Source: Opitutia bacterium
GTDB lineage: Bacteria > Verrucomicrobiota > Verrucomicrobiia > Opitutales > T3Sed10-336
Reading direction: 5' to 3'
Length of the DNA stretch: 64,000 bases
NCBI GenBank assembly: GCA_050506795.1
Contig: JBJHCF010000004.1
Location: 1 to 64,000, forward strand
Shown here: positions 48,790 through 64,000 of the stretch, piece after piece
How the letters are laid out: the number at the start of each line of letters is the position of its first letter
Numbering within the stretch: position 1 is the stretch's first letter
Program-made: the position numbers and the translations under genes
The notes under the pieces: generated by a model
Database searches by the model: none
The model's input: the letters and a program-made list of their open reading frames with translations, nothing else
What the model was told of the DNA's origin: nothing

Positions 48790-48882
48790 GGAGAGATGGC
48801 TGAGTGGCCGAAAGCAGTGGTTTGCTAAACCGCCGTACCGCCAAAAGCGGTACCGAGGGTTCGAATCCCTCTCTCTCCGCCA
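48790..48882 (+). tRNA. tRNA-Ser(GCT)
   Basis: GGAGAGA acceptor stem, anticodon arm GTGGT-TTGCTAA-ACCGC, long variable arm, GGTTCGAATCC, 3' GCCA. Confidence 0.96.
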
Positions 48883-48920
48883 TTTGTGATGGGCTTTTGC
48901 CTTAGATTTGCCAAAATGGA

Positions 48921-50282
48921 ATGGCAAATCTGAGAAAAACCATGGCAAAACCTAAGTTCAAGATCACCCCGTTCACCAACCCCAGCGGCCAGCGCGTTTA
49001 CCGTCTGTCTGGCACGCTCAACGGCAAGAGGATCCGTGAGAATTATCCGACTCGCCCCGAAGCCGTTGCAAAGCGTCAGGAATATGAGGTCGAGTGGCTC
49101 AACGACCATCCCGAGGGCCGCACGATCTGGACCACCTTGACTCCTGAGGAGAATCGCGACGCGGTCACCGCAATGAATTCCCTCAAGATGAATGGCGCTC
49201 CCTACTCGCTCAGCTTCGCCGTCAGTTACTGCCTGGAGAACTACCGGCCGCCGGAACAGGAGAAATCGATCAGCGAGGCAGCGGACGAGTATGTCAAGAA
49301 GCGGGACCGCGACTGCGTTCGCGAATTCATCTCCCAGGCGCAATTTCGCTCGATCAAATCCGAGATGCTTTGGCTCAAGAGCAAGTTCGGGAGCACGCCG
49401 GTTTCGGCCATCACCGTGGAAAAATTCCGCGACTACCTCGAAACTCCGCGCAACCGGCCGCGCAGCCGTCTCGTGAAAAAGGAGGTCACCGCTCCCAAGA
49501 CCTGGAACAACCGTCGGGGCCTTCTCTCGACCTTCTGTCTGTTCTGCGTCGAGCGCGGTTACCTCGCGCAAAATACGATCGCGAAGGTTCCCCAATTCAA
49601 GATCAACGGTCGCAAGTCCATGGCGAAAACGCTAACCGTCGATCAGGTCAACGAGCTGATGGAATACCTCGAAGCCTATGACGGGTCACCTATCCGCCGC
49701 CTCAAGGAGCCCCAGCCCGCCGGCTTCCTGGTTCCCTTCTTTGCTCTCGCTCTCTTCGCCGGCATTCGTCCGGATGCGCTCTACGGCGAAATGGGTAAGC
49801 TCCAGCCGGAAGACATCGACCTGAACATGGGCGTTGTCCGGGTTCGGCCCGAAGTCTCGAAGACCAACGAAATGCGCGTGGTGGCCATTCAGCCAAATCT
49901 TCGGCTGTGGTTGGAGAAATATCCGGTGGAAAAGTTTCCGCTTCTCCCGGGAAAGAACATCGTTCGCATCCTCTCCGAGGTCCGCCAGGAACACAAGATC
50001 GGCCATGACGTTCTCCGGCACACTTACATTTCGATGCTGGTCGGCGCTTTTCGTTCGGTCGGCGACGCCGCGCTCCAAGCAGGCAATTCCGAGGCGGTGA
50101 TTCGCAAGCACTACCTCGATTTGAAGTCGGTGGAGGAGGCCGATCAGTTTTGGCAGATCATTCCTGCCGGGACTGAGCTTCCCAAGAACTTCAAGAAAAA
50201 GGACGGTCGATACGCCTTTTTCAACAAACCGGAGAAGGACTCCGAAGGCGCAGAAGAAGCTGAAGAGCTGGCGTCGGTCTAG
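48921..50282 (+). CDS. Tyrosine recombinase/integrase (alternative start 48942)
   Basis: FAGIRP (R), SKT (K), HDVLRHT (HxxR), GNS, KHY (Y). Confidence 0.92.
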   Translation: MANLRKTMAKPKFKITPFTNPSGQRVYRLSGTLNGKRIRENYPTRPEAVAKRQEYEVEWLNDHPEGRTIWTTLTPEENRDAVTAMNSLKMNGAPYSLSFAVSYCLENYRPPEQEKSISEAADEYVKKRDRDCVREFISQAQFRSIKSEMLWLKSKFGSTPVSAITVEKFRDYLETPRNRPRSRLVKKEVTAPKTWNNRRGLLSTFCLFCVERGYLAQNTIAKVPQFKINGRKSMAKTLTVDQVNELMEYLEAYDGSPIRRLKEPQPAGFLVPFFALALFAGIRPDALYGEMGKLQPEDIDLNMGVVRVRPEVSKTNEMRVVAIQPNLRLWLEKYPVEKFPLLPGKNIVRILSEVRQEHKIGHDVLRHTYISMLVGAFRSVGDAALQAGNSEAVIRKHYLDLKSVEEADQFWQIIPAGTELPKNFKKKDGRYAFFNKPEKDSEGAEEAEELASV

Positions 50283-52179: not shown

Positions 52180-53490
52180 TCAGGCGCGGCCGAGGGTGAC
52201 GTTGTCGTAGTAGAGCGGCGTGTTGGTCTGGATCAGCGAGCCGAGATGGATCGTGTCGAAGGGGCCGGGAGCGTAGGCGAGATTTGTTCCGTTTGGGTCG
52301 AGCTTTCCATCGACGTAAACGTCCAGGCTGCTGTGACGGATAATCACCTCGAACTGATGCCAGCCACGGGAGCGCGGGGCGTCGAGCTGGATCCACCCTG
52401 ATCCGCCAACGTTGCGGAATTGGTATTTCGGGAGGCTGTAAGTCCCGGCAGTGACGGTGTTGTGAAGGCCGGCGGCGAAGATCACGAAAGAGTTGTCGCG
52501 GCGAAGCTCGGCGTATTCGCGGCCGGACTTTGGGTCGCTGGAGTCGTAGGGATCGTAGAAGCGGAAGGACCATTTTAGCGGCGCAGCATCGGTTGCGGAG
52601 ATCGGGTCGAACTGGGTCTTGCGGAGGCCGCCGGAGGAGAAGAGAACCAGGTTACCGGTCGCGAGGTTTTGCGCCGTAGCGACAGGAGCGCCGTCGGCGG
52701 CGCCGTAAGGCGTGTAGCTACCGTCTGGTCGCCACCTTGGGAGAGTCCATCCAGAGGGGCCTTTGTCTCCTTTCTCGTAGGAGATGATGTAGCTGTTATC
52801 GGCGGGCTCGAACCACATGAAGATGTCGTCCCGGCGGAAGCTGGCTCGGTTGTTGAAGAGCCCGTTGTAGTCCCAGGTTCCGTTGCCCTCCTCGGGAGTG
52901 ATGAAGCCGGTGACTTCAAGTGTGCTTCCCGGATAGGCGTTCGGGTCACGATCGAGGATCGAGACCGGGTTTTGGTTGTGCCACGGTTGCGAAGGCTCGG
53001 TCTCGGGCCAGGCCGCGTTAAAGGTGACGGGATTGTCGAGGTCGTAGATCTGAAATGTTTCGAGGAAATGCGGCCAGCGGAGGTCGATCATATCAACCTC
53101 GGCGGACCAGAGCATCGTGTCGTCGGGTTCCCCAGTGACGTGGAGGGATAACGCGCCGGGTGCGTCAGGCGCGGGAATAAGCGAAACTTCGCCACCGCTC
53201 CCGACCGGGCCAAGCTTTTGCTGGGCGCTCAACGAGATCACACCGGCGTCGTTGCGGGCAAGAACGAGAATTGATGCTCCGTAGGTGGTCGTGAAGGCCT
53301 CCGTGCGACCGGTGACGCGGATGCTCAGCAAACGCACCGCCCCGGCCGGGATGGTGAGGCGGTGGCGACCGGAGATAAGGAGTTCGGTCGCCTCGGTGCC
53401 ATAGCTCACGCCATGGAACTGGATTGGTTTTGTGGGCGTGCTGGCGGGAACAACCTCGGGCGGGCGCGGTGGAATGAGCGGCGGGAACAT
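52180..53490 (-). CDS. Putative virion spike/receptor-binding protein
   Basis: 436 aa beta-rich modular protein downstream of capsid genes; C-terminal ConA/LamG-like GWHQFEV....LDVYVDGK; no signal peptide. Confidence 0.5.
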   Translation of the reverse strand: MFPPLIPPRPPEVVPASTPTKPIQFHGVSYGTEATELLISGRHRLTIPAGAVRLLSIRVTGRTEAFTTTYGASILVLARNDAGVISLSAQQKLGPVGSGGEVSLIPAPDAPGALSLHVTGEPDDTMLWSAEVDMIDLRWPHFLETFQIYDLDNPVTFNAAWPETEPSQPWHNQNPVSILDRDPNAYPGSTLEVTGFITPEEGNGTWDYNGLFNNRASFRRDDIFMWFEPADNSYIISYEKGDKGPSGWTLPRWRPDGSYTPYGAADGAPVATAQNLATGNLVLFSSGGLRKTQFDPISATDAAPLKWSFRFYDPYDSSDPKSGREYAELRRDNSFVIFAAGLHNTVTAGTYSLPKYQFRNVGGSGWIQLDAPRSRGWHQFEVIIRHSSLDVYVDGKLDPNGTNLAYAPGPFDTIHLGSLIQTNTPLYYDNVTLGRA

Positions 53491-53539
53491 TGGCGAGAAT
53501 TGGAGATTGGAAATTTGAGATTGAAGATCGTGTTCCGGG

Positions 53540-53833
53540 TCAGAGGAGTTGGGTGATTCGGAGAATCGCGTCGGCGGCTGTGGCGCGGATGAATCTGGCC
53601 TTGGTGTAGAGTTCCCGGGGCCAGAGCACTGCGCCTCCTCCGACCGGGAAGTAGTGGCCGTGATTGATGGTCGGCGTCGAGCCGTCGAAGGTCACGCGGA
53701 CGGGTCCGTTGTCGACGGAGACGAGAATTTGCCAGGTGTCCGAATGGAGGGCTGGCAACGCCACGGAGGCGCCCGACACCGCAACCGCGATGTCGGGGCC
53801 TTGTGGGTTTGGTTTAACCAGGTGGGCGCTCAT
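53540..53833 (-). CDS. Small beta-rich putative virion protein
   Basis: 97 aa MSAHLVKP...VRVTFDGSTPT..HG immediately after the capsid gene; start reassigned within the longer ORF call. Confidence 0.6.
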   Translation of the reverse strand: MSAHLVKPNPQGPDIAVAVSGASVALPALHSDTWQILVSVDNGPVRVTFDGSTPTINHGHYFPVGGGAVLWPRELYTKARFIRATAADAILRITQLL

Positions 53834-53844
53834 GGCAGGCAGGC

Positions 53845-54762
53845 TCAGGTGACGCTGACCCGGCGGGCGCAAACCTTGGAGGTTACCTTGATGTCTTCGG
53901 TCCAATCCACCGCGAGGATGTCCGAGCGGTTGCTTTCGGCGCGGTAGATCCGGACGATGTCCACTCCCCCGCCGCGGGTGCGGAAGGTTTTCATGAACGA
54001 GGGATCGTAGACGCTCGGCGCTGCCTGGGCGATGAACAGGTAAAGCTCCGAGCCGATGATGTTGACGGCGTTCTTCGCCTTGCCGGGCTTTGCCGTGTCG
54101 GCGGACATGACGCCGACGCGGATGTCCAGGTTCGGGTTGAGCAGAAGGCTCGCGAACTGGGTCAGGGTGACGCCGACGCTGGCCGCTCCCGGGAAGCGTT
54201 TCACCACGGCCGGGTTGTGCCGGATGCGGCGCCACGCCGGAAGACCGATCGCCATGCGATTGGGCATCTGGCCGGTCTGGGTGGCCAGCTCTTCGATGAG
54301 TTGGTCGAGCTCGGCGACCGGGTCGTTGGTGTTGCTCGCGCCGTCCCATTGCCCCATGCCGCTGACGGCGGGAACGCTGGAAGCGGCGATCGAAAAGACC
54401 TTCGCTTCGTGGGCGACCTTGGCCCCGGAAACGAGGGTCCGGGTCTTGGCCTTTTCGAGGCCGAGCGGGTCGCCTTCTCCCGCTTGCCGGCGCTCGTGGT
54501 CGTCAATGGCGATTTCGAGCGCGTTCGGGTTGCAGTTGAAGAACGGATCCTCGGCTTCGAACTCCAGCCGGCGGGCGGGACCGCCGATGGCGCGGCGCGT
54601 ATCCGGGTTCTGGAACGCGTTTTTGTCGGAGAAGTCCTTGTATTGCCCGTTGGCGGACTGGACAACGACTTCCGGCGCGAGGAAGCTGGCGAGGGACGGC
54701 GAGCCGTCCTGCGAGAGCCCTCGGGCGTAGTTGGTGAGGGTGATGTTGAATTTAGAGGACAT
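53845..54762 (-). CDS. Major capsid protein (HK97 fold)
   Basis: 305 aa; LTNYARG..LAPEV.V, WD....DP, PNRMAIG..AW..IRHNP; position after protease and decoration genes. Confidence 0.8.
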   Translation of the reverse strand: MSSKFNITLTNYARGLSQDGSPSLASFLAPEVVVQSANGQYKDFSDKNAFQNPDTRRAIGGPARRLEFEAEDPFFNCNPNALEIAIDDHERRQAGEGDPLGLEKAKTRTLVSGAKVAHEAKVFSIAASSVPAVSGMGQWDGASNTNDPVAELDQLIEELATQTGQMPNRMAIGLPAWRRIRHNPAVVKRFPGAASVGVTLTQFASLLLNPNLDIRVGVMSADTAKPGKAKNAVNIIGSELYLFIAQAAPSVYDPSFMKTFRTRGGGVDIVRIYRAESNRSDILAVDWTEDIKVTSKVCARRVSVT

Positions 54763-54814
54763 AGCTGTGGAATTTCAGATTTGAGATCGGAGATTGGAAA
54801 CGAGTGGTTGCGGG

Positions 54815-55213
54815 TTACGGTGCGATGAGGACGGCCTCGATCTTCTCTTCGGCGACACCGCCCTCCAGCGCCATGGCAACGCGTGGCGTGGTCGGTGCGT
54901 CGCTGCTGGCGACGAAGGCAACTTCGTCGTTGTCTTCGAAAAGACCGAGAAGCGTGCCGGTCTGGGTGACCGGGCCGAAGAGCTTCACGCGGACGGTTCC
55001 GGAGAAGCCTCCCCGCGCCGGGGCGACGGTGACTTGCTCACCGGCTTTCCCGCCTTTGAGAAGGACGCCAAACGGCGTCTGCTCGGCGTTGGTCAGAAGA
55101 GTGATCTCGTTCTGACCGGTGACGATGACTGGATAGCCCTCCTTGCCGGTAAGATCGATGGCTGCCTTGAATGGCAGGATAGCGTTTTCGCGAACAATGC
55201 CTACTTGGCTCAT
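54815..55213 (-). CDS. Capsid decoration/cement protein
   Basis: 132 aa; A..DL..K.GY.V, FGVL...G.AGE.V.V, A.ALE......IEA.L. Confidence 0.7.
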   Translation of the reverse strand: MSQVGIVRENAILPFKAAIDLTGKEGYPVIVTGQNEITLLTNAEQTPFGVLLKGGKAGEQVTVAPARGGFSGTVRVKLFGPVTQTGTLLGLFEDNDEVAFVASSDAPTTPRVAMALEGGVAEEKIEAVLIAP

Positions 55214-55231
55214 AGCTGTGGATTCCTTTCT

Positions 55232-56350
55232 TTAGTTGAACAGTTCCGGGGCCTCGGCCTGGGCCTTGGCGAAGATGGTGTCGAAGGTGGCGGCCGGGTG
55301 AGCGGCGCGGAGATCGTTCAGCTTTTTGAGCTGAAGGGCCTCCTGGTTCTGGACGGGGCCGGTGCCCGCATCGCGTGCGGTGACGATGGTCGCGAAGGCG
55401 GGATTGACCGGAAGGGCCTCCAGGGCCTGCACGGCTTTCCCTTCATCGCGGATGAGAGCGTCGACCCAAAAGGTCTTGGCGTTTTCGTCCTTTGGCGCGA
55501 CGCGGCCGGCCTGAATGGCGGCATCGACGCGGGCCTCGGCTTTGGCTCGGATGGCGTTGTCACGCTCGGTTTCGAGAGCGGTCAGGCGTTCCTTCGCCGC
55601 CGCGAGATCGGCGCTGCTGGATTGCAGCGCGGTAACTTTGGCTTTCACCTGGGCGATGATGTCGGCTTCCTCCGTGGCGGAGGCCTCGACCAGCCCGAGT
55701 GTCACCAGATTCTTCAGTAGTTCTTTCATGGTTACGTGGTCTTCAGTTGCGGGTTGTGGATCTTGTCCCTTGGCGAACAAGGGCTGGATTCGTTTGAAGG
55801 CGGCGCGGTTTACAAGTCCGCCCATGTTGGTTTCGCTCCCGATGACGCGGCCTGCGGCATCGAGGAGAAAAGTCGGAGAAAAGCGCCGAAAGGCGCGGTC
55901 CTGGATGGCTTTCTTGCCGACGCCGGACCATTCGATCTTGGCGCGAACGCCGCCGGTCTTCGGGTCGTCGCCTCCCCAGAAGATTTTGACCGGCCATGCC
56001 GCGGCCTCGCGGTCGTCGTGATTGAAGTCGAAGAAGGGCTTGTCCTCGGCCCCGGCTGCGGCCAGCGCAAGCTGGCGGGTTAGCCAATCGGAGAGCGCGG
56101 TTGCCGTGGCCTGGCTGACCTCCACGTCGAGTTCGACCGGTTTGCCGGCGCGGGAGGCGCGAATGCGGTGACGGCCGGGCGGCATGTATTGGATCTCTTC
56201 GGGAAGTTGGTCCTCGGCCGGCTCTGGAAGAGCGACGGAGAATGCAGCTTTTACGGGCTCGCCCTTGGGCGGCGCGTAGGCCATGACGCCGTCGGGGCCT
56301 TCGGTCCATCCGGGATTGGAGGTTGGGGAGTTGTGATCGTGTGCGGTCAT
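55232..56350 (-). CDS. Mu gpI-like prohead protease with C-terminal scaffold
   Basis: MPPG, DFNHD...AAAW, IEWS..G...I..RAFRRFSPTF, GGLVNRAAF; helical C-terminus VDAAIQAGRVAP. Confidence 0.85.
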   Translation of the reverse strand: MTAHDHNSPTSNPGWTEGPDGVMAYAPPKGEPVKAAFSVALPEPAEDQLPEEIQYMPPGRHRIRASRAGKPVELDVEVSQATATALSDWLTRQLALAAAGAEDKPFFDFNHDDREAAAWPVKIFWGGDDPKTGGVRAKIEWSGVGKKAIQDRAFRRFSPTFLLDAAGRVIGSETNMGGLVNRAAFKRIQPLFAKGQDPQPATEDHVTMKELLKNLVTLGLVEASATEEADIIAQVKAKVTALQSSSADLAAAKERLTALETERDNAIRAKAEARVDAAIQAGRVAPKDENAKTFWVDALIRDEGKAVQALEALPVNPAFATIVTARDAGTGPVQNQEALQLKKLNDLRAAHPAATFDTIFAKAQAEAPELFN

Positions 56351-56640
56351 TTCGGTTTCCAGATCAGAGCGATAGAACAGCGGCAGTTGGGATGAACGGG
56401 GGGAAAGCGTGTCCAATCCTTGCCGTAAAGAGTGCCGTGGAGAGCGCCGCATACAGAGCAAGTGCCTTCATCGAAGTCAGTGATCCAGACGTAGGTCTGG
56501 TTTGGATCGAGCGGAGGCGGCGGCTCGCCGTCGGGATAGGTGTAGAACCATCCGTCAGGGCCTTTAACCCAACCGGGATGGCGTTCCGATTCCCGAAGCG
56601 GTTCTTCCGCGTGTAGTGCTTGTTTGGCGACGTCATTCAT
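56347..56640 (-). CDS. Miniature Mu gpF/SPP1 gp7-like head morphogenesis protein
   Basis: W...D..TCSVCGALHG..Y...FPPVHPNCRCS; only 97 aa; coupled to neighbours. Confidence 0.75.
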   Translation of the reverse strand: MNDVAKQALHAEEPLRESERHPGWVKGPDGWFYTYPDGEPPPPLDPNQTYVWITDFDEGTCSVCGALHGTLYGKDWTRFPPVHPNCRCSIALIWKPK

Positions 56641-58019
56641 TCAGTCCCGGGTCGAGGGTGAAGGGATTTTGGATTTTCGATTGCGGATTGCGGATTTGGA
56701 TTCGCGGGTGGGTTGTAGAGCACGTCCTCTTTGCCTGGAGCGGGAACCTTGTGGCGTTCGTAGAGCCACTGGCGGGAGACCGGCAGGGCCATATCGACGA
56801 AGAGTAGCTTGTCGCGCTCGACGAGCTCCTTGTCACGGGTAAGGCGCGGGATCTCGACTTCGATGTAGGGAAGCTCTTCGAGGTCGCCGTAGTTGAGCTG
56901 GATGATGGCGGGAATGAGCTGGTGATTGAGAACCTCGGCGACGTGGTTGGCGTAGCCTTCAAAGAGGTCGAGTTCGACTTCGCGGTGAACGCGGCCAAGA
57001 GCTTGCGTGCCTCCGCTTGCGGGAGTGTCGGACGTGAGAGTCTGGCCGAGGAAAAGAAGGTCGCATGCCTTGTCGGCGATGATCATCAGGCGCTCGTTCG
57101 GATCAGTGGGACCGGCTACGCCCGGAACGATGCCGTTGGACATGATGTTGATGTCGGTCCCTTTCGGGAACGCTCCCCAGGCGGATGCTCCCATCTGCTG
57201 GAGCATGTTGGCGATCAGTTGAACCTGACTGTCGGGGATGTGCTCGTCGTAGGTGGCGTAGCGGAGCGGGATCCCGAAAAGCTCCGTTTTCGAAAGCATC
57301 CACTCATAGCCAAGGAGGCGACCGAGCCAGAGCGGAGCGAGGGCGCGAAGCTGGGCGCAGGCGCCGGGGTTCGGAATGGTCGGCGGAAAGACCGAGAGAA
57401 GGAACTTGTTCGGGTAGCGGTCAAACGAGTGTGCTTCGTGGCGGTTTCGCTCCGGGTATAGCATCAGCCGGCCGGCGTGGGGATTGTGCATCGAGATGTC
57501 GAAGCCGAGGCAGGAGTAAGGAACGCGGCGCGTGCCGGTCGGGAGGATGAGTCGGTCACGAATTGCCCAATCAACCTCCAGCACGGTGACGCCCACGGCG
57601 ATGGAATCGACGAGGTTGCTGATCGTTTGGGCGAGGTTGATCTTGTTTTCGGCGAGATTCGTCGCGCCGCCGTGGAGAGCGGTTTCGATGAGGGAGGCGC
57701 GTTCGATGGCGCTGGCGGTTGGCTCCTTCCCCTTCGGACTCCATGGCTGAATGTTCCATGGGAGCTTGGTGACACTGACCTTGATCTTGTTGAGGTTCGA
57801 CCGGAGGCGCGGCCAGGTGTCGAACATGATCGAGAAAAGCTCCTGCTGACGCTCAAGGTCTCCCTGCAGTCCGGCGTCGAGCATGGCGCCCATGGTGTCG
57901 GGGTCGATGGAGCGACCCGAGAATATGTGACGGAAATCGAGGCCGGAAGGCTGGATCACCGGCTTGAGGAGCTTCCGTGGAGCGGCGTCTTTGGCTTTCG
58001 TGAGAAACGGGATTCTCAT
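56637..58019 (-). CDS. Portal protein, Mu gp29/DUF935-like
   Basis: GDL..Q.ELF, G..VLEVDW, E.FG.P.R...Y, LGQTLTS...GG.QALG.VH.EV, LN.QLI. Confidence 0.88.
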   Translation of the reverse strand: MRIPFLTKAKDAAPRKLLKPVIQPSGLDFRHIFSGRSIDPDTMGAMLDAGLQGDLERQQELFSIMFDTWPRLRSNLNKIKVSVTKLPWNIQPWSPKGKEPTASAIERASLIETALHGGATNLAENKINLAQTISNLVDSIAVGVTVLEVDWAIRDRLILPTGTRRVPYSCLGFDISMHNPHAGRLMLYPERNRHEAHSFDRYPNKFLLSVFPPTIPNPGACAQLRALAPLWLGRLLGYEWMLSKTELFGIPLRYATYDEHIPDSQVQLIANMLQQMGASAWGAFPKGTDINIMSNGIVPGVAGPTDPNERLMIIADKACDLLFLGQTLTSDTPASGGTQALGRVHREVELDLFEGYANHVAEVLNHQLIPAIIQLNYGDLEELPYIEVEIPRLTRDKELVERDKLLFVDMALPVSRQWLYERHKVPAPGKEDVLYNPPANPNPQSAIENPKSLHPRPGTE

Positions 58020-59392
58020 CAGTTACGCCCTCCAAAGGTTGCGCCCGCCGTGTAGATCGAGCGGAAGCGGGTTGGCGTCGGGACGAACCGCGAGGGATTG
58101 CCGCCGATCTGGAAGGCGTTCGGTTTTGGCGCGGATCCGGTTCCGCCGTGGCGGGCTGCGGCATGCAGGGCCAACGCGAGGGCGGTGGAGCGGTCGGCGT
58201 GGCCGTCGGCCGTTCGTGCGGCGGTGTATCGAATGTTTCCGGACGGGGAAACGATCCGTTGCAGGCTGGCCAGATCGTCGCGCAAGCGTGCGTCGAGAGG
58301 GATTTTGATCGTGCCTTCCTGGAAGTGTTTCTTGGCGCGAATGAACAGCTCGCGTTTGCTCTCCGCAGAAAAGGTAACGGGGTCGAGCTTGTAGTCGCCG
58401 AGGGTATCGGCCAGGTGCTCGGAAATCGGTCCGCCGATACCCGTCGCGTCGATGGCGGAATAGGTGGCGCGTTGCAGGCGCGGCGTGAGAGCCGCTTCCT
58501 GCTCCGGGAAAGGGACGCCGTCGAGGATTAGGATTTCGCGGGTCCAGAACGTGCCGTTGACCGCTTCGACCGTCCAGCAAACGGTGAGGTCGCGCTTGCG
58601 GCCGATGTCGACGCCGACGAAAACTGGGTTTCCGGTGAGAGCGTTCCAATCGTGGGAAGCAGCGGAATCCTCGGCAGCAGTGATGAGATCGCGGGGGAAG
58701 ACCTGGGCGCTCTCTGCCATGAACTGGCACTCGAACTCCTGCGACCATCCATCAGGATCGTTCAAGTTGGCGCGAAGCTCGTCGATGTTGACGGCGAGTC
58801 CGGCCTCTGCCGCATCGTAGATGGTGGTTTTGTGACGGGAGAAGTCGGCTCCGTTTTCCCACAGGTCGAAGTATTTGTTGTTCATCCCGGCCGGCGTGGA
58901 GATCACGCGCAGCTTGAGCCGACCGCGAAGGGGATTGGTGATGATCGGATAAACCGCCCTCCAGATGTCCTCGGGCTTTTCGTGGAAGGCGAACTCGTCC
59001 AGGACGAGATTGCCGGAGTAGCCACGGGCGGTGGAGGGATTGGCCGGGAGCGCGATTAGACGAGCACCATTGGGAAAGCGGCACTGGCTGGCTTTCGTTT
59101 CGGGGCGGTATTCCTGGCCGGTTTCGAAGGAGATCGCATCGCAGAAGACGGCGGCGGCCTGGTGGACCTTGGCCATAAATTCGAGAGCCTGCCGTTCACC
59201 GGCGGAGAGGATCACCCAGTCGCCACCCGTTTCGAGTGCATCGGCGACGACCTCGAACGCGGTCGCGAGCGATCCGCCGATTTGCCGGGATTTGAGCCAG
59301 ATCTTGAAGCGGGTCCGGTCGTTGACCCAGCTGCGCTGATACGGGAGCAGGAGGTCGAAGGGAGATACCTTCAATTTCGGACGTTTGCTCAC
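58019..59392 (-). CDS. Terminase large subunit, Mu gp28-like
   Basis: LLPYQ..W, KSRQIGGS Walker A, LVLDEFAF Walker B, ISTP.G, GVDIGR..D, DATGIG, HADR. Confidence 0.92.
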   Translation of the reverse strand: MSKRPKLKVSPFDLLLPYQRSWVNDRTRFKIWLKSRQIGGSLATAFEVVADALETGGDWVILSAGERQALEFMAKVHQAAAVFCDAISFETGQEYRPETKASQCRFPNGARLIALPANPSTARGYSGNLVLDEFAFHEKPEDIWRAVYPIITNPLRGRLKLRVISTPAGMNNKYFDLWENGADFSRHKTTIYDAAEAGLAVNIDELRANLNDPDGWSQEFECQFMAESAQVFPRDLITAAEDSAASHDWNALTGNPVFVGVDIGRKRDLTVCWTVEAVNGTFWTREILILDGVPFPEQEAALTPRLQRATYSAIDATGIGGPISEHLADTLGDYKLDPVTFSAESKRELFIRAKKHFQEGTIKIPLDARLRDDLASLQRIVSPSGNIRYTAARTADGHADRSTALALALHAAARHGGTGSAPKPNAFQIGGNPSRFVPTPTRFRSIYTAGATFGGRN

Positions 59393-59889
59393 TCCTTAGC
59401 TCCTACTGCTCCAAGTCGGTCGCGCCAGCTTTGGAGAATTTCACGCTGGTCGGCCTGGTTGATGTTAACCTCGGTCTTGACGAGGGCCGTCGGGCGGTCG
59501 GCGTAGACGTCCGGCTTGTGGCTCTTGAGGAGGAAGATCAAGCAGGCGTCGGAAAACTTGCGCTTGTATCCACAAAGGTTGCCTTTGATGTCAAAGACCG
59601 GCTCTTCCCAGCCGTCGACCGCACGGCGATGGAGCTCCTGTTCGGCGGATTCGATCCGCTGGACGTTCTTAACGCGGTCGCGTTCAAGTTGGGCGGCCTG
59701 GAGGCGCGGCGTCAGTTCGGGGCGACGGGTGAGGTTCCTGTAGAAGTTGCGCGGATTTAAGCCCTCGCGCTCAATAGCTTCGTAGGTGGGTTGGCCGTCG
59801 AGGATGTTTGCGAGGACGCGATCAAAAAGCGCTTCCGAGAATTTCGAAAGCCTGCCGGCTCGTTTTGCTACTGCCGTTTGCCTTGCCAC
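59389..59889 (-). CDS. Terminase small subunit
   Basis: N-terminal HTH, E.EL.RRAVDGWEEPVF...YKRKFSD..LIFLLK..KP..Y; overlaps terL start. Confidence 0.75.
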   Translation of the reverse strand: MARQTAVAKRAGRLSKFSEALFDRVLANILDGQPTYEAIEREGLNPRNFYRNLTRRPELTPRLQAAQLERDRVKNVQRIESAEQELHRRAVDGWEEPVFDIKGNLCGYKRKFSDACLIFLLKSHKPDVYADRPTALVKTEVNINQADQREILQSWRDRLGAVGAKE

Positions 59890-60029
59890 GAATTAATGGC
59901 ATGACATACGGGGGGCTAGGACAACTTGGGAAGTTGTGTAAAAGTTGCTGGATTTAACTGTATTTGTGCACGGTCGCGAAAACCGGAAAGTTCGTGGCCA
60001 TGTTCAGGAGAAAAGGTAGGTTGTGTGTG

Positions 60030-60506
60030 ATGTCTGAAAAATCGAGCAGGTGTTGTGATGAGGCGTCCAAAGGTCCCTTCGATGAAGTTCTGGGCTGTCC
60101 TCGTTGTGGCCGCAAGGGTCGCCCGGTCTCCGAATTGACGGTAAAGCAGCAGGTAGCACCGGAACATTTGGAGGCGGCAAGCGGCGAAGGGAATCAGTTC
60201 TGCGGGACTCCGGATTGCGCGGTGGTGTATTTTGTCGCTGGGGGGCAGGTCTTCGAGCAGAAGGATCTACGGCAGAAAGTTGGGTTGAAGGACCGTTCAG
60301 ATCCGTCCCCGGTTTGCTACTGCTTTGGGTTTACAAGGAGGATGGTGGAAGATGAGGTTCGGTCGACTGGCAGGAGCACGATTCCGGACCGCATTGCCCG
60401 CGAAGTGAAGGCAGGAAACTGTGCGTGTGAGGCGCGGAATCCACAGGGGAGTTGTTGCCTTGGGAATGTGACGGCGGCGGTGAAAGAGGCGGAACGTGGG
60501 GGTTGA
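60030..60506 (+). CDS. CopZ-N-like Zn-binding/BFD-like [2Fe-2S] metallochaperone
   Basis: CPRCG, FCGTPDC.VVYF, PVCYCFG, CACEARNPQGSCCLGNV. Confidence 0.85.
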   Translation: MSEKSSRCCDEASKGPFDEVLGCPRCGRKGRPVSELTVKQQVAPEHLEAASGEGNQFCGTPDCAVVYFVAGGQVFEQKDLRQKVGLKDRSDPSPVCYCFGFTRRMVEDEVRSTGRSTIPDRIAREVKAGNCACEARNPQGSCCLGNVTAAVKEAERGG

Positions 60507-60509
60507 TCG

Positions 60510-62490
60510 TTGTTGGACCCTCGCGGGGCCATAAACGCCGCGACGTAAAAACGCGTGTAGAGGCGCGGAGCGCCGCTGGCAACGACGAGCGGGCGTTAGC
60601 CCGCGAGGAGGCGCAGCGAGGCCGTTGTCGGCCGAGCGGAGGCCGCGGGGCGAGGCCGCGGAACTGGGGGCGCGGAGCGCCTAGGCGTTCTATTGGCGCG
60701 GCGAAGCCGCTGGTGATTGCAGGCGCGATAGCGCCGTGCGAAGCTGCGAAGCAGCGTAGCGAAGGGCGCTGCCAGGGGCCGCCCCAGGCGCTGGCTGAGC
60801 CAGCGCGTCAGCGCGAGGCGAAACAGCGCGGGGCCACCGCGCCGGGAGGCGGGGGGAAGGCGCCCCTTCCATTCACATTAAGGGGCGCCGCCTGGCGTCG
60901 AGGAGATCAACGGTAGCGATAGCGAGTGAAACGGGGGAGGTTCGCGACGGCGAGGGTCGTGTGGCCGTTCCGCCGACCAGGGCGGGGGCTGGGGGATATA
61001 CTGATTTCAGGCCCCGAGCGAAGCGAGAGCGAATGCGTGGGCCGTGCAACGACGAGTCTTCGAGGAGGCGCAGGGAGCCTTAGCGACCGAAGTTCGCCCG
61101 GGTTAGGCGGGCGAAACTGGGGGCCGGTCCGGATAGCGGCTGGTGAGGGCTCTGCCACAGACGGGTCCCGGGTGGATGGGGTGAGCCCTCGCTGCCTGCG
61201 CCGGGGCGGCCTAGGCCCTACTCTACTGGAGCGAAGCGACAACTGACTCGAGCCCCCGGAGCGGAGCCGGAGCAGACGCCCAGTCCCGCAAGCGCACATG
61301 ATCATCATATGTCAAAAATCCGCCGGAAGAAGGAATACCTGGACTGATGGAGGAAAAGTGAACACGTCAGGATCTTCGGCATATGATCCTCATGTGCGGT
61401 CCCGCTTTTTGGGACGAACTGGAGGGAAGCAGGAAGCATGACACCGGCTTGCCGGTGGCGCGATGCCTGCGAGGGCGTCTGTTCCGGCGGAGCGGAGGGG
61501 GCTTTCCGGGGTTGGGTGTGAGTGAGCTTGCGAACGAACTGGTAGAAGTTTCGAGCGGGAGCGAGCGTCAGCCTTCCCGGCGATTGAGGGTCCAAAGCGG
61601 TCGGCAGCGCGTCGCCGGGGCGAGGCGGATGGGTTGGCGGAGGGCGTTTCCCGGCGTGGCGCTGCTGGTGACTTTCAGCGCCGGAAGGAGCGGTCTGAGG
61701 CGGAGTCTTCGGAGCCTCTGTCCGCGACTCGGCGCCAGAGGGGCGTTCGATTGCAACCGGGGCGAGCAGTCGCTGGCGGATGGTGACCAGAGCGTAACGG
61801 AGCGTCCGGCGTAGCGCAGGGTGGAGCGTAGGGGTGCAGTAGTCCGGTTGCCCGAAGGGTCGCGTAACACGAGGGGACGCGGTGAGCGAAGCCTGTCGCC
61901 GTTAGGCGTCTGGCGAAGCAGCGGCCAATCGTGTTACGCGCCGGACTTCTGCATCCCGAAGCGGAACCCGGAGCGGAGTCGGAAAGCGGCGTGGAGCGAC
62001 GGGAGCGATCGGCCAGCGTCTGCGGTTGGATTGTCCCGAACCGAGCGACCGGAACAGTCGCTCCGGATGCGAGGTATCGAGCAGAAGGAGTGTCTGTGGA
62101 GGGAGCGGCCGGATTACCCGTCAGGGTTGGCGAGGGCGTTCGATTGGAACGGGATCGAGCAGTCTCGGGCCCGCTGCGAGGGAGACCGGGCGAGCGATTA
62201 GCCGCCCAGGTTCGACTAAGCGAAGGGGCCGAGTCTGCGGTTGGATTGTCCGAGGACGAGCGACCGGAACAGTCGCTCTGGAGTGAGGAACGAATGGAGG
62301 AGCGTCTGTGGAGGGAGCGGGATTGCGCCCGTCAGGGGTGGGACGTTGACTTGCAACCGAATCGAGTGGTCGCTGAAGGAAGGGGCGGCGGCGCTAAGGG
62401 CCGTTGCTGCCTTTGGCAGCTGATGGCCCGTGCGGCGACGAACCGACCGGAAGCGTCCACGGTTGGATTACCCGGGGCCGTTCGCTCCGT
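60510..62490 (+). other. ~2 kb non-coding, highly structured region (ssDNA element or large ncRNA)
   Basis: No credible ORF; nested long-range inverted repeats, GNA-loop hairpins and a ~215-bp internal duplication. Confidence 0.7.
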
Positions 62491-62955
62491 TTATTGCACG
62501 CCGTGGCGGTTAGCCGCTTGCTCCTCGCGGGCATGTTCCGCGAAGCTATCGGCCAAAGCCAAGACCTCTTCCGGGGTTGGGCTTCTATCGGTTTCAGAGA
62601 AGGCCACCGGACATACCAGCCAGTGAACCGCACGCAAAAGATGGTCGGAGATGAGGGAGGCTGAGCGGCCACGAACCGCAAATTCCCCAGTGTTGAAAAG
62701 CTCCATGTGACGAGACAAATACGTGCAGACCGTGGCAATTGCCGAACCCCGCTCCAATCTGTCGATGTCGTTCGAGTAGGTCTCGTGCATGTAATCTCTG
62801 ATCTCGAGGACATCCGTTACATAATCACGCTTTGTTCCTTCCGGACAAGGACGCCTGACCGCTTCAAGATCTCTCACAAATTCGGAGAACGGATACTGGT
62901 AGCGCGAATTGGCCACTGCGGAGCTCTTCTGACTGTCGCTTTCTGCTCGATTCAT
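62491..62955 (-). CDS. Hypothetical protein
   Basis: 154 aa from MNRAESDS; protein-like composition; same strand as neighbours. Confidence 0.55.
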   Translation of the reverse strand: MNRAESDSQKSSAVANSRYQYPFSEFVRDLEAVRRPCPEGTKRDYVTDVLEIRDYMHETYSNDIDRLERGSAIATVCTYLSRHMELFNTGEFAVRGRSASLISDHLLRAVHWLVCPVAFSETDRSPTPEEVLALADSFAEHAREEQAANRHGVQ

Positions 62956-63016: not shown

Positions 63017-63289
63017 CTACAGGCGCTTGCGCCAATCGGGATTCCTGGCAATCCAGTCGAGGGCGGCGGCGAGCGTTGTGCGGTTGGCGGGCATTGGGAA
63101 GCCGGCTCTGCGCATTCGATAAACGTAGGTGGGATGATGTTTCAATTGCCAGGCCAGTTCCTTGGCAGTGAGCAAGGGTCCGGTCGTGAGGAGATCGACG
63201 GAATTGAGATTCTCCGCGTCCCGCTTCGTCGATGCGTGGCGTCGCTCGATAGAATTCTGGGCTTCGGATTTGAGATTGGAAGTGGTCAT
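63017..63289 (-). CDS. Small HTH DNA-binding protein (AlpA/excisionase-like)
   Basis: LLTAKELAWQLKHHPTYVYRMRRAGFPMP...ALDWI. Confidence 0.7.
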   Translation of the reverse strand: MTTSNLKSEAQNSIERRHASTKRDAENLNSVDLLTTGPLLTAKELAWQLKHHPTYVYRMRRAGFPMPANRTTLAAALDWIARNPDWRKRL

Positions 63290-63377
63290 TGCGAACTGGA
63301 GATTTGAGATTCGAGATTTTGGATTTGAGAAATGCCCTCTCTCGGAGGGTGGAATTGGAAAGTTCCCTGGCCAGTCT

Positions 63378-63469
63378 CGCGACAGTGACACTCCCCTAAA
63401 GGGGAGGTGTCATGTGTCGCGGTGACGGGTTTTGCGATGTGTCGCAATAGGTGTCGCGCAAAGTGTCGC
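63378..63469. promoter_or_regulatory. Putative replication origin: palindrome plus GTGTCGC iterons
   Basis: GTGTCGC at 63414, 63439, 63451 and 63463; imperfect inverted repeat 63378-63421. Confidence 0.65.
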
Positions 63470-63501
63470 GGAGAGTCTGGACGGAATTGATCGACCATGG
63501 C

Positions 63502-63999
63502 TTATGCGACGATTTCTTCGCCTTTTTTGGTGAGTTTGTAGCCGTCTTTGCCGGTTCGAAAATAGCCCTCTGTCTTTCCTTTGAGCAAAACGCGCTGCAG
63601 GGAGCGCTTTGAACCGGCGTCGGGACCGCCGAGAGCATCATGGATTTCGCCTATTTTTTTTGCTCCCTCGTGGATCGCGCCCGCGACTTCCGCGAGGCTA
63701 AAGTTGGCGTTTGATCGCTTGCCTTCGACGTCGTCTTTCCATGCCTGGAGGTCGAATGTCGGGTCGATGCCGTAGAGCATCGTCTCTTCGGAGAGCTTCA
63801 AACCGACGGGATCGAAAGGCTTCGCGTCGTTCGATTTTCCGCAGGAAACAACGATGCGGCTCGGGTCGTCCGGATCGGCGGGGGCGATGTTGATCTGCGA
63901 GCGGCAACCCGAATAAAGCGCCTTCGAGCCGAGACCGAAGTTGGATTTATCCCACCCCACCGCCTGGGCGATGTTCTGCCGGCCGGTGCGCCCGTGATG
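63502..63999 (-). CDS. C-terminus of AAA/RepA-type (SF4-like) helicase or primase-helicase, truncated by window end
   Basis: Frame open to the edge: HHGRTG...GLGSKALYSGCRSQINI...CGKSN, followed by a winged-helix-like C-terminus. Confidence 0.7.
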   Translation of the reverse strand, partial: HHGRTGRQNIAQAVGWDKSNFGLGSKALYSGCRSQINIAPADPDDPSRIVVSCGKSNDAKPFDPVGLKLSEETMLYGIDPTFDLQAWKDDVEGKRSNANFSLAEVAGAIHEGAKKIGEIHDALGGPDAGSKRSLQRVLLKGKTEGYFRTGKDGYKLTKKGEEIVA

Positions 64000-64000
64000 A

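Follow-up and report, generated by a model that had tools for sequence, protein, structure and literature searches.

Why would an element that encodes a terminase carry, beside its terminase genes, a dense cluster of mini-hairpins on one strand, and what does this DNA do? A sequence-only reading of the window (the whole 64-kb stretch of DNA analysed here) had counted about 13 plus-strand copies of GCGNAGC and none on the minus strand between 60562 and 61919, and had taken them to favour a role in single-stranded DNA (ssDNA). On recounting both strands we find 14 copies on the plus strand, including every position it had listed, and 0 on the minus strand, and the four 5-bp stems it described are exact at 60562, 60669, 60698 and 60743. 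The remaining 10 of the 14 copies have only the core stem of 2 Watson-Crick pairs, which in two cases (61018 and 61231) is lengthened by tandem G·A pairs, and an extra plus-strand copy lies outside the interval at 62540.

The cluster exceeds what base composition predicts. Shuffled sequences yield a mean of 2.3 (dinucleotide) or 3.7 (trinucleotide) plus-strand copies and reached 14 in 0/2000 cases each, and 7/2000 shuffles that preserve 4-mers get to 14. The sequence-only reading had suggested weighing the per-strand count against the genome background, and there the enrichment holds: at a genome rate of 0.41 per kb per strand (4.94 Mb), 14 is the top count of any 1.4-kb window, the runner-up having 7. 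The minus-strand zero alone is not significant, with about 1 copy expected there, and there is no enrichment over the entire 64-kb window (61 vs 53.5). A pure composition artefact is excluded by the 2- and 3-mer shuffles together with random G-rich host DNA, in which no loop type is enriched (C(GNA)G 3 vs 2.9). The genome's second-densest GCGNAGC window, C12:46480-47400 (L080), is an array of tandem ~120-nt repeats of tRNA-like fragments, several with GAGCG(G/T)AGCGAG, that enters an assembly gap.

A conserved module upstream of terS

The plus-strand cluster is real within the interval first given for it, but the feature extends further, to about 60540-62550: it is a larger module directly upstream of terS (Table 1), of which the GNA hairpins form one part. 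Its DNA is predicted to fold better than shuffled sequence (z of -3.1, -4.5 and -4.1, 20 shuffles each). A protein-coding reading was rejected, the 8 ORFs in or beside the module having no tblastn match in related loci and no family above the cut-off.

Table 1. Features of the module and of the element that carries it, in window positions unless a contig is named
Feature	Position	Strand	Remarks
attL (28-bp repeat, 3' end of tRNA-Ser) and tyrosine integrase	48857..50282	+	
Mu-like head module	53845..59889	-	terS, terL, portal, short gpF-like, protease I, 132-aa ORF, major head protein
CopZ-like zinc-binding gene between terS and module	59964..60506	+	Pfam PF18423
Conserved non-coding module, predicted ssDNA folding	~60540..62550 (limits approximate)	+	antisense to head and replication genes
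TAAAAACGCG box, terS-proximal edge	60546..60556	+	12/15 representative regions, 0 on other strand
Seven GCGNAGC mini-hairpins, four with perfect 5-bp stems	60562..60760	+	
GCGNAGC starts	60565, 60611, 60672, 60701, 60738, 60746, 60754, 61018, 61231, 61261, 61487, 61809, 61886, 61913	+	
Most conserved core: GCGCGGGGC-CCGC hairpin, G-run, CCCC/GGGG hairpin with variable loop	60826..60897	+	
G-rich box, then hairpin C-GA-GC(GAA)GC-GA-G with tandem G·A pairs	60979..61027	+	
Second tandem-G·A GNA hairpin	61228..61240	+	
Dif-like site 1, 5' arm of forked hairpin	61289..61317	+	XerC-like arm 61289-61299, 7-nt spacer, XerD-like arm 61307-61317
Dif-like site 2, inverted, 3' arm of forked hairpin	61374..61402	-	
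Degenerate ~210-nt repeats	61740..62480	+	62004-62218, 62219-~62430; partial copies at 61740, 62452
Long branched hairpin holding CCCGAAGGG and two GCGAAGC	61835..61959	+	z -5.0, both strands
Excisionase-like gene and AAA_25 helicase	63017..64000	-	
attR	C4:80885-80912		outside window

The one-strand polarity is shared by the relatives. Of these, 23 distinct ones have 1.5 kb or more of sequence upstream of terS (23 of 25, two mis-sliced loci being left out); their GCGNAGC count is 204 for the strand opposite terL against 12 for the terL strand, and the head genes have a milder bias in this direction (166 vs 50 in 128 kb). The parts also keep their order: the TAAAAACGCG box, which may be a terS promoter or a packaging signal, is followed by the GC-rich core, the G-box with its tandem-G·A hairpin, the long forked hairpin and the repeated units. 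Each core motif is present in 12-13 of 15 non-redundant regions (among which L040 lacks the module and the L021 region is incomplete), and 0/15 carry any of them on the other strand; the GGAATAC in the loop of the dif-like hairpin (61332-61338) is kept in 10/15 representative regions. The most conserved core has blastn matches in 13 viral loci, and 25 of the 26 matches to its pattern in IMG/VR lie beside a terS/terL module, the other being a chance match in a coding region. One relative chosen by terS alone (G323) has the core and a GCGNAGC count of 20 vs 2 by strand over 4.5 kb, where 3.7 are expected. Searching with the whole region gave no second copy in its own genome or in 11 family genomes, and only short matches (E 0.04 or worse) in plasmid and cultured-phage DNA.

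The replication genes of the relatives vary, with at least four types (P4-alpha-like primase, SF2 helicase with fused primase-helicase, DnaG-like, and PolA type), and the module remains beside terS whichever of them is carried, which fits packaging as well as replication. Cargo genes interrupt the module in some relatives. Shorter forms are found in head-less elements: L103/L109 (with CHC2 primase, repressor and integrase), L167, L135 (near a tRNA) and G110 (at tmRNA). The last, L233:10000-19928, is a small element with cargo only and an integrase 48% identical to that of the window. In another relative (L029) the portal gene lies between terS and terL, ~4.5 kb apart, and the module stays with terS.

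The module belongs to a 32-kb element that lies between 28-bp repeats, from the 3' end of tRNA-Ser (48857) to C4:80885. Its TerL is at most 41% identical to cultured matches, with the Mu-like phage B3 among the top ones. The CopZ-like gene is an insertion, as the relative in RNA run X5 skips 59976-60518. Past the window end follow an AEP primase, PolA, a resolvase, an exonuclease, a DUF669-like probable SSB and then, at the far end, metal-efflux cargo (C4:72146-80684) made up of an RND efflux set plus a P-type ATPase; among DNA runs, a mine-tailings metagenome matches best. The structural model of the primase (pLDDT 92.6) has an AEP fold with S-2L PrimPol as best match (E 7.5e-4), and RepB' comes third as a weak match (E 0.047, 14% identity); sequence searches with primase and helicase against solved structures gave no match. 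No recognised tail family is found among the element's ORFs, and one protein of L029 has weak tail-protein matches (E 1e-7). Two ORFs past the major head gene (97 aa and ~420 aa, at 52180-53833) belong to no family and may be candidate head-attached receptor-binding or adaptor parts of a tail-less particle.

Searching with TerL retrieved 28 viral and 24 genome loci, with 23 of the 24 named records from Verrucomicrobia, mostly Opitutae; terS is present in 3/151 genomes of the order. Relatives are integrated at tRNA-Glu and beside other tRNAs. One complete genome carries two tail-less elements (L223/L042/L224 and L225/L045/L226), both with defence cargo: DUF4007 with PAPS reductase and cysteine desulfurase, and a SMODS nucleotidyltransferase with DUF499 and DUF1156. 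Since the cultured strain IMCC26134 holds two copies, the main predictions made below are testable.

A forked hairpin built from dif-like sites

At 61289-61402, the stem of a forked hairpin (predicted fold z -2.2) is made up of a pair of inverted sites that follow the pattern GCAC-WW, 6-7 nt, WTATGYC. We observe such a pair in 29 of 32 terS-upstream regions, 23 with the strict pattern and 6 more with the same stem and variant arms; two of the other three regions are incomplete and one is without the pair. No pair is detectable in G323. Across 22 distinct pairs, 233/242 arm positions are complementary vs 211±3 with shuffled partners, a difference inflated by the choice of the best register, and in alignment A5 the stem pairs at 241/250 positions vs 217±4. 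The spacers of these 22 pairs are mostly 6+7 nt and co-vary; they start with GA, CT, TG, TC, CA or AA, and the dif spacer TATATA is not matched. In the window copy, ATATG replaces TTATG in both XerD-like arms (the first base is changed) and the spacers are 7+7, and five relatives have XerC-like arms with GTGTAA or GTATAA.

With respect to the host, a relaxed dif pattern occurs in only five places of its genome: two in the window pair, two in a further inverted pair (C29:65546-65671) and a lone one at C39:41767. Homologues of this last site (C39:41767-41794, L079) are found in 40/121 class genomes, single-copy in 39 and in two copies in one, with fixed arms and a variable 6-nt centre; judged by this sequence pattern it is probably the host's chromosomal dif. 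Compared with the arms of this candidate, both dif-like sites score 8.6/11 on the XerD side, and 5.8/11 and 7.0/11 on the XerC side. The host genome has a xerD that scores above the cut-off, and another gene that is XerC-like. Furthermore, the consensus of the second XerD-like arm, TTATGCCGA, is present in the stem of the pT181 single-strand origin (a 9-nt match that reads equally well as an RS_B-like sequence or as a XerD arm).

A search of plasmids for the dif-like hairpin gave no match, and among 122 collection matches to a partial dif pattern, 30 are true hairpins (11 distinct) and 92 look like chance or lone dif. The model R1, with matches in 2/150 genomes, is sequence-only and insensitive because MAFFT misaligned the dif-like arms in alignment A3. 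The C29 copy (C29:65546-65700, L078:10546-10700) stands alone: its inverted dif-like sites form a hairpin whose loop contains mini-hairpins with tandem G·A pairs, and it is flanked by the end of a gene and a stretch of low GC. Copies resembling it adjoin a Y1-type transposase gene (L098/L099) or lie close to an integrase whose N-terminal domain is of the integron type (L112), and copies of this type could belong to a separate Xer-using or cassette-like element.

In the window, the dif-like stem is not used for integration: the element uses the tRNA and its own integrase. We propose instead that the region as a whole is a cis-acting single-strand origin and processing module for strand-asymmetric replication, a proposal to which we give even odds. 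The dif-like stem would be the counterpart of plasmid RS_B, bound by host XerCD and/or RNA polymerase; that it is also cut by XerC is a more tentative suggestion that we hold at somewhat below even.

Xer recombination might on the other hand be the main job of the region, with host XerC making one strand exchange in which either both partners are folded copies within a displaced single-stranded concatemer or one is folded and the other duplex, so that unit circles are released or incoming DNA is circularised without a HUH protein and the mini-hairpins then prime the circle. The likeness of both sites to the arms of a dif candidate that is single-copy in 39/40 matching genomes is in line with this, as are the confinement of the relaxed pattern to five host places, the co-varying spacers, the two xer genes of the host, and a size and layout as in CTX attP(+) (PMC3442271, PMC5357621). 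Against it stand the ATATG arms and 7+7 spacers of the window copy, the variant XerC-like arms of the five relatives, spacers that differ from that of host dif, integration at a tRNA through the element's own integrase, and the absence of a detectable pair from G323, and we regard it as unlikely. Also on the unlikely side, and rather improbable as a complete scheme, is HUH-less rolling circle in terminase-packaged satellites, in which host XerC would cut and rejoin the folded dif mimic, freeing single-stranded unit circles, and DNA-only mini-hairpins would prime the second strand. If true, the module would be a large natural structured DNA (1-2 kb), analogous to the large structured RNAs, and elements with and without head genes would share it in cis.

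Loop types and a proposed single-stranded stage

Tandem G·A pairs and C-TT-G loops are stable in DNA. C-G-closed GNA and GNNA loops are exceptionally so, and such mini-hairpins, which SSB binds poorly, are found at the G4 and ssiA priming sites, according to PMC13037366. We took a census of loops on stems of at least 4 bp in the 15 non-redundant regions (25.4 kb). All the DNA-type loops are in excess (observed vs expected: C(GNA)G 28 vs 3.5; C(GNYA)G 10 vs 1.2; CTTG 6 vs 0.5), as is C(GNRA)G (10 vs 2.9); GNA and GNRA loops closed by any other pair show no excess, and UUCG loops are absent from all 15 regions. On the opposite strand nothing is enriched (C(GNA)G 1 vs 2.4). The host 16S and 23S rRNA, with G-U allowed, gives the reverse picture, with GNRA at 11 vs 2.9, UUCG at 2 vs 0 and C(GNA)G at 1 vs 1.6.

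The pairing in the stems follows the same pattern. In the tandem-G·A hairpin at 60979..61027, the C-G pair and both G·A pairs are invariant in 10/10 aligned relatives, and the inner stem and loop vary. The motif GAGCGNAGCGA has 17 copies in 9 of the 15 regions and 0 on the opposite strand, against an expectation of 0.2. The G·T, G·A and bulged pairs of the module are possible on one strand only; better folding of the G-rich strand is in itself no special trait, G-rich coding controls likewise folding better on that strand (-5.1 vs -9.6 kcal/mol per 250 nt). The loops and mismatches of the module obey DNA stability rules, unlike host rRNA, and the module offers an example on which a test of loop types can be used to tell DNA from RNA. 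Judging from these sequence patterns, the region probably acts as folded ssDNA. The ssDNA role first read from the motifs gains from both lines of evidence, the one-strand enrichment of DNA-stable loops in 15 homologous regions and the presence of a folded dif mimic like CTX attP, and the analogy drawn with N4 promoters gained no support, no virion RNA polymerase being found among the element's scanned ORFs.

A large structured non-coding RNA from the plus strand, of the GOLLD, ROOL or MISL kind, would share several of these properties: the region is long, conserved, co-varying and G-rich on one strand, tandem G·A pairs and CUUG loops are stable in RNA too, and MISL is a large Verrucomicrobial RNA motif. 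The plus strand also has the region's sole sigma70-like promoter match (61359-61387, overlapped by dif-like site 2) and a terminator-like stem (62473-62489), neither above chance (1 vs 0.4 and 1 vs 3.5 expected). We consider such an RNA quite improbable given the DNA-type loop signature without UUCG, the cargo genes inserted inside the module of relatives, and the Rfam 15 covariance models, which match nothing in the module and find only the tRNA. The RNA runs X5 and X8 add a weak hint in the same direction: their contigs, in which strand and level are invisible, extend over a related element from end to end and give the module no extra coverage (flat at 21 in X5, and 3.5-7.5 vs 7-13 on the head genes in X8). 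A signal of a tenth of the words in these two runs was rejected as module RNA, being due to the presence of a diverged whole element and not of the module.

With respect to a single-stranded stage, base composition gives a mixed picture. The head genes are C-rich at 4-fold sites in 29/29 relatives, which are kin and so not independent, with a mean skew of -0.50 vs +0.05 and -0.18 in host gene classes. The integrases have 4-fold skews of -0.4 to -0.6 when co-oriented (5) and of +0.07, -0.08 and -0.24 when opposite (3), and the two elements of one complete genome, which have opposite orientations on the same side of dif, each keep their own skew. The G/C skew fits long exposure of the motif strand; the T/A skew disagrees with it.

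On the reading as a single-strand origin and processing module, the excised element would replicate asymmetrically, by rolling circle or strand displacement, leaving the plus strand single. Once exposed, this strand would fold, and its GNA and tandem-G·A hairpins would withstand SSB and nucleases and serve as signals for complementary-strand priming, either as a PriA-type primosome site or as an ssi for the element's AEP primase; we rate the chance that the region has this priming function as evenly balanced. The terminase would finally receive a double-stranded concatemer. Among the scanned ORFs, four of which have no family, neither a HUH Rep nor a relaxase is found, which leaves the nicking step unexplained. 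The tandem-G·A GNA motif is absent from the single-strand origins of pT181 and pUB110 (both low in G+C) and from the F leading region, so that such arrays are not a general trait of single-strand origins (sso). Taken together, the module suggests that supposedly double-stranded satellites pass through a single-stranded stage.

Alternatively, the terminase could read the region, as duplex or as extruded hairpins, as a packaging or genome-end site (pac or cos with accessory sites, or the site of a terminal-repeat duplication), and head-less elements would keep it so as to be packaged. In agreement with this, almost every relative with head genes has the region immediately upstream of terS, whatever its replication module, and head-less integrative elements (L103/L109, L167 and G110) retain it. 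Against it, the G·T, G·A and bulged pairs can form on one strand only, and 1-2 kb would be a long pac or cos site; we hold it decidedly improbable. Fixed genome ends near the core were rejected, since contig ends are scattered from 5 to 961 nt away with no pile-up. Finally, an oriT with a leading region, nicked near the core by a helper conjugative element so that the plus strand is transferred first and its hairpins act as ssDNA promoters or priming sites in the recipient, would suit the one-strand polarity, the lack of tail genes and the presence of the module in small integrase-plus-cargo elements (G110), but is very improbable with no relaxase among the scanned ORFs, no similarity to plasmid records (best E 0.04), no early genes after the hairpins, and a full head module encoded by the elements.

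Comparison with known systems

The closest likeness of the forked hairpin is CTXphi attP(+), where inverted sites are laid out in the same folded way (PMC3442271, PMC5357621 and PMC6744903): two inverted XerC/XerD-like sites that resemble host dif form the stem, with an imperfect overlap region (in our case a predicted fold). The sizes are also similar, with sites 45-91 nt apart and a hairpin of ~110-125 nt in the modules and 90 nt and ~150 nt in CTX (PMC5357621 and PMC3442271). Unlike in the attP of CTX-type IMEX, the overlap region does not match host dif on the XerC side; moreover, the element lies at a tRNA-Ser with its own integrase, encodes a terminase and has the sites mid-element, has no filamentous-phage or HUH Rep genes, and surrounds the hairpin with 1-2 kb of extra structure. 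Folded Xer-type sites are thereby extended from filamentous phages to a terminase-encoding element in which they do not serve integration.

With ssoA and its RS_B, which is described as serving both recombination and RNA polymerase binding in the sso (PMC5703833 and PMC8860593), the module shares an orientation-specific imperfect stem-loop with TTATGCCGA at its base in pT181, and so bears on the question of whether plasmid RS_B is a Xer-type site. It differs in being ~10x longer and G+C-rich, in its many GNA and tandem-G·A hairpins, which pT181 and pUB110 lack, and in that no HUH initiator or dso is found in the element (scanned ORFs).

Priming sites offer further likenesses. The tandem-G·A GNA hairpin GAGCGNAGCGA, as an 11-mer pattern, occurs once in ColE1, at position 1332, which we take to be the primosome-assembly (pas) region, a likeness to n'-pas in sequence only. 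A likeness to the ssi of RSF1010 with RepB' is that an AEP primase and an AAA_25 helicase adjoin the module. RSF1010 has one ssi per strand; the module differs from n'-pas and ssi in its many copies, arrayed on one strand and kept by relatives with other primases. The CCCGAAGGG at 61851 contains the ssiA mini-hairpin named in PMC13037366.

The element as a whole resembles cf-PICIs in its tRNA integrase, its own replication genes, terminase, portal, protease and capsid, the lack of a tail, and its defence or resistance cargo. cf-PICIs are smaller and have an HK97-like head cluster, whereas the module elements are 32-37 kb long with a Mu-like portal, protease and TerL, and with PolA here. They mark a family of tail-less, Mu-headed Verrucomicrobia satellites with metal-resistance and defence cargo of which we found no description. 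In the open full-text literature we found neither the module nor the elements described, and an earlier listing as an RNA motif (MISL) may exist, although MISL was not found in that literature or in the main text of PMC5737381.

As a long conserved structure in mobile elements, the module is also similar to the large motifs of Weinberg et al. 2017 (DUF1874, ARRPOF, GEBRO and PAGEV), from which it differs in that no Rfam model matches it. That work notes that large structured motifs may be ssDNA, that complex ssDNA structures are rare, and that ssDNA and RNA are hard to tell apart computationally (PMC5737381). Each part of the module has a known counterpart, and the module as a whole fits none of the classes compared here.
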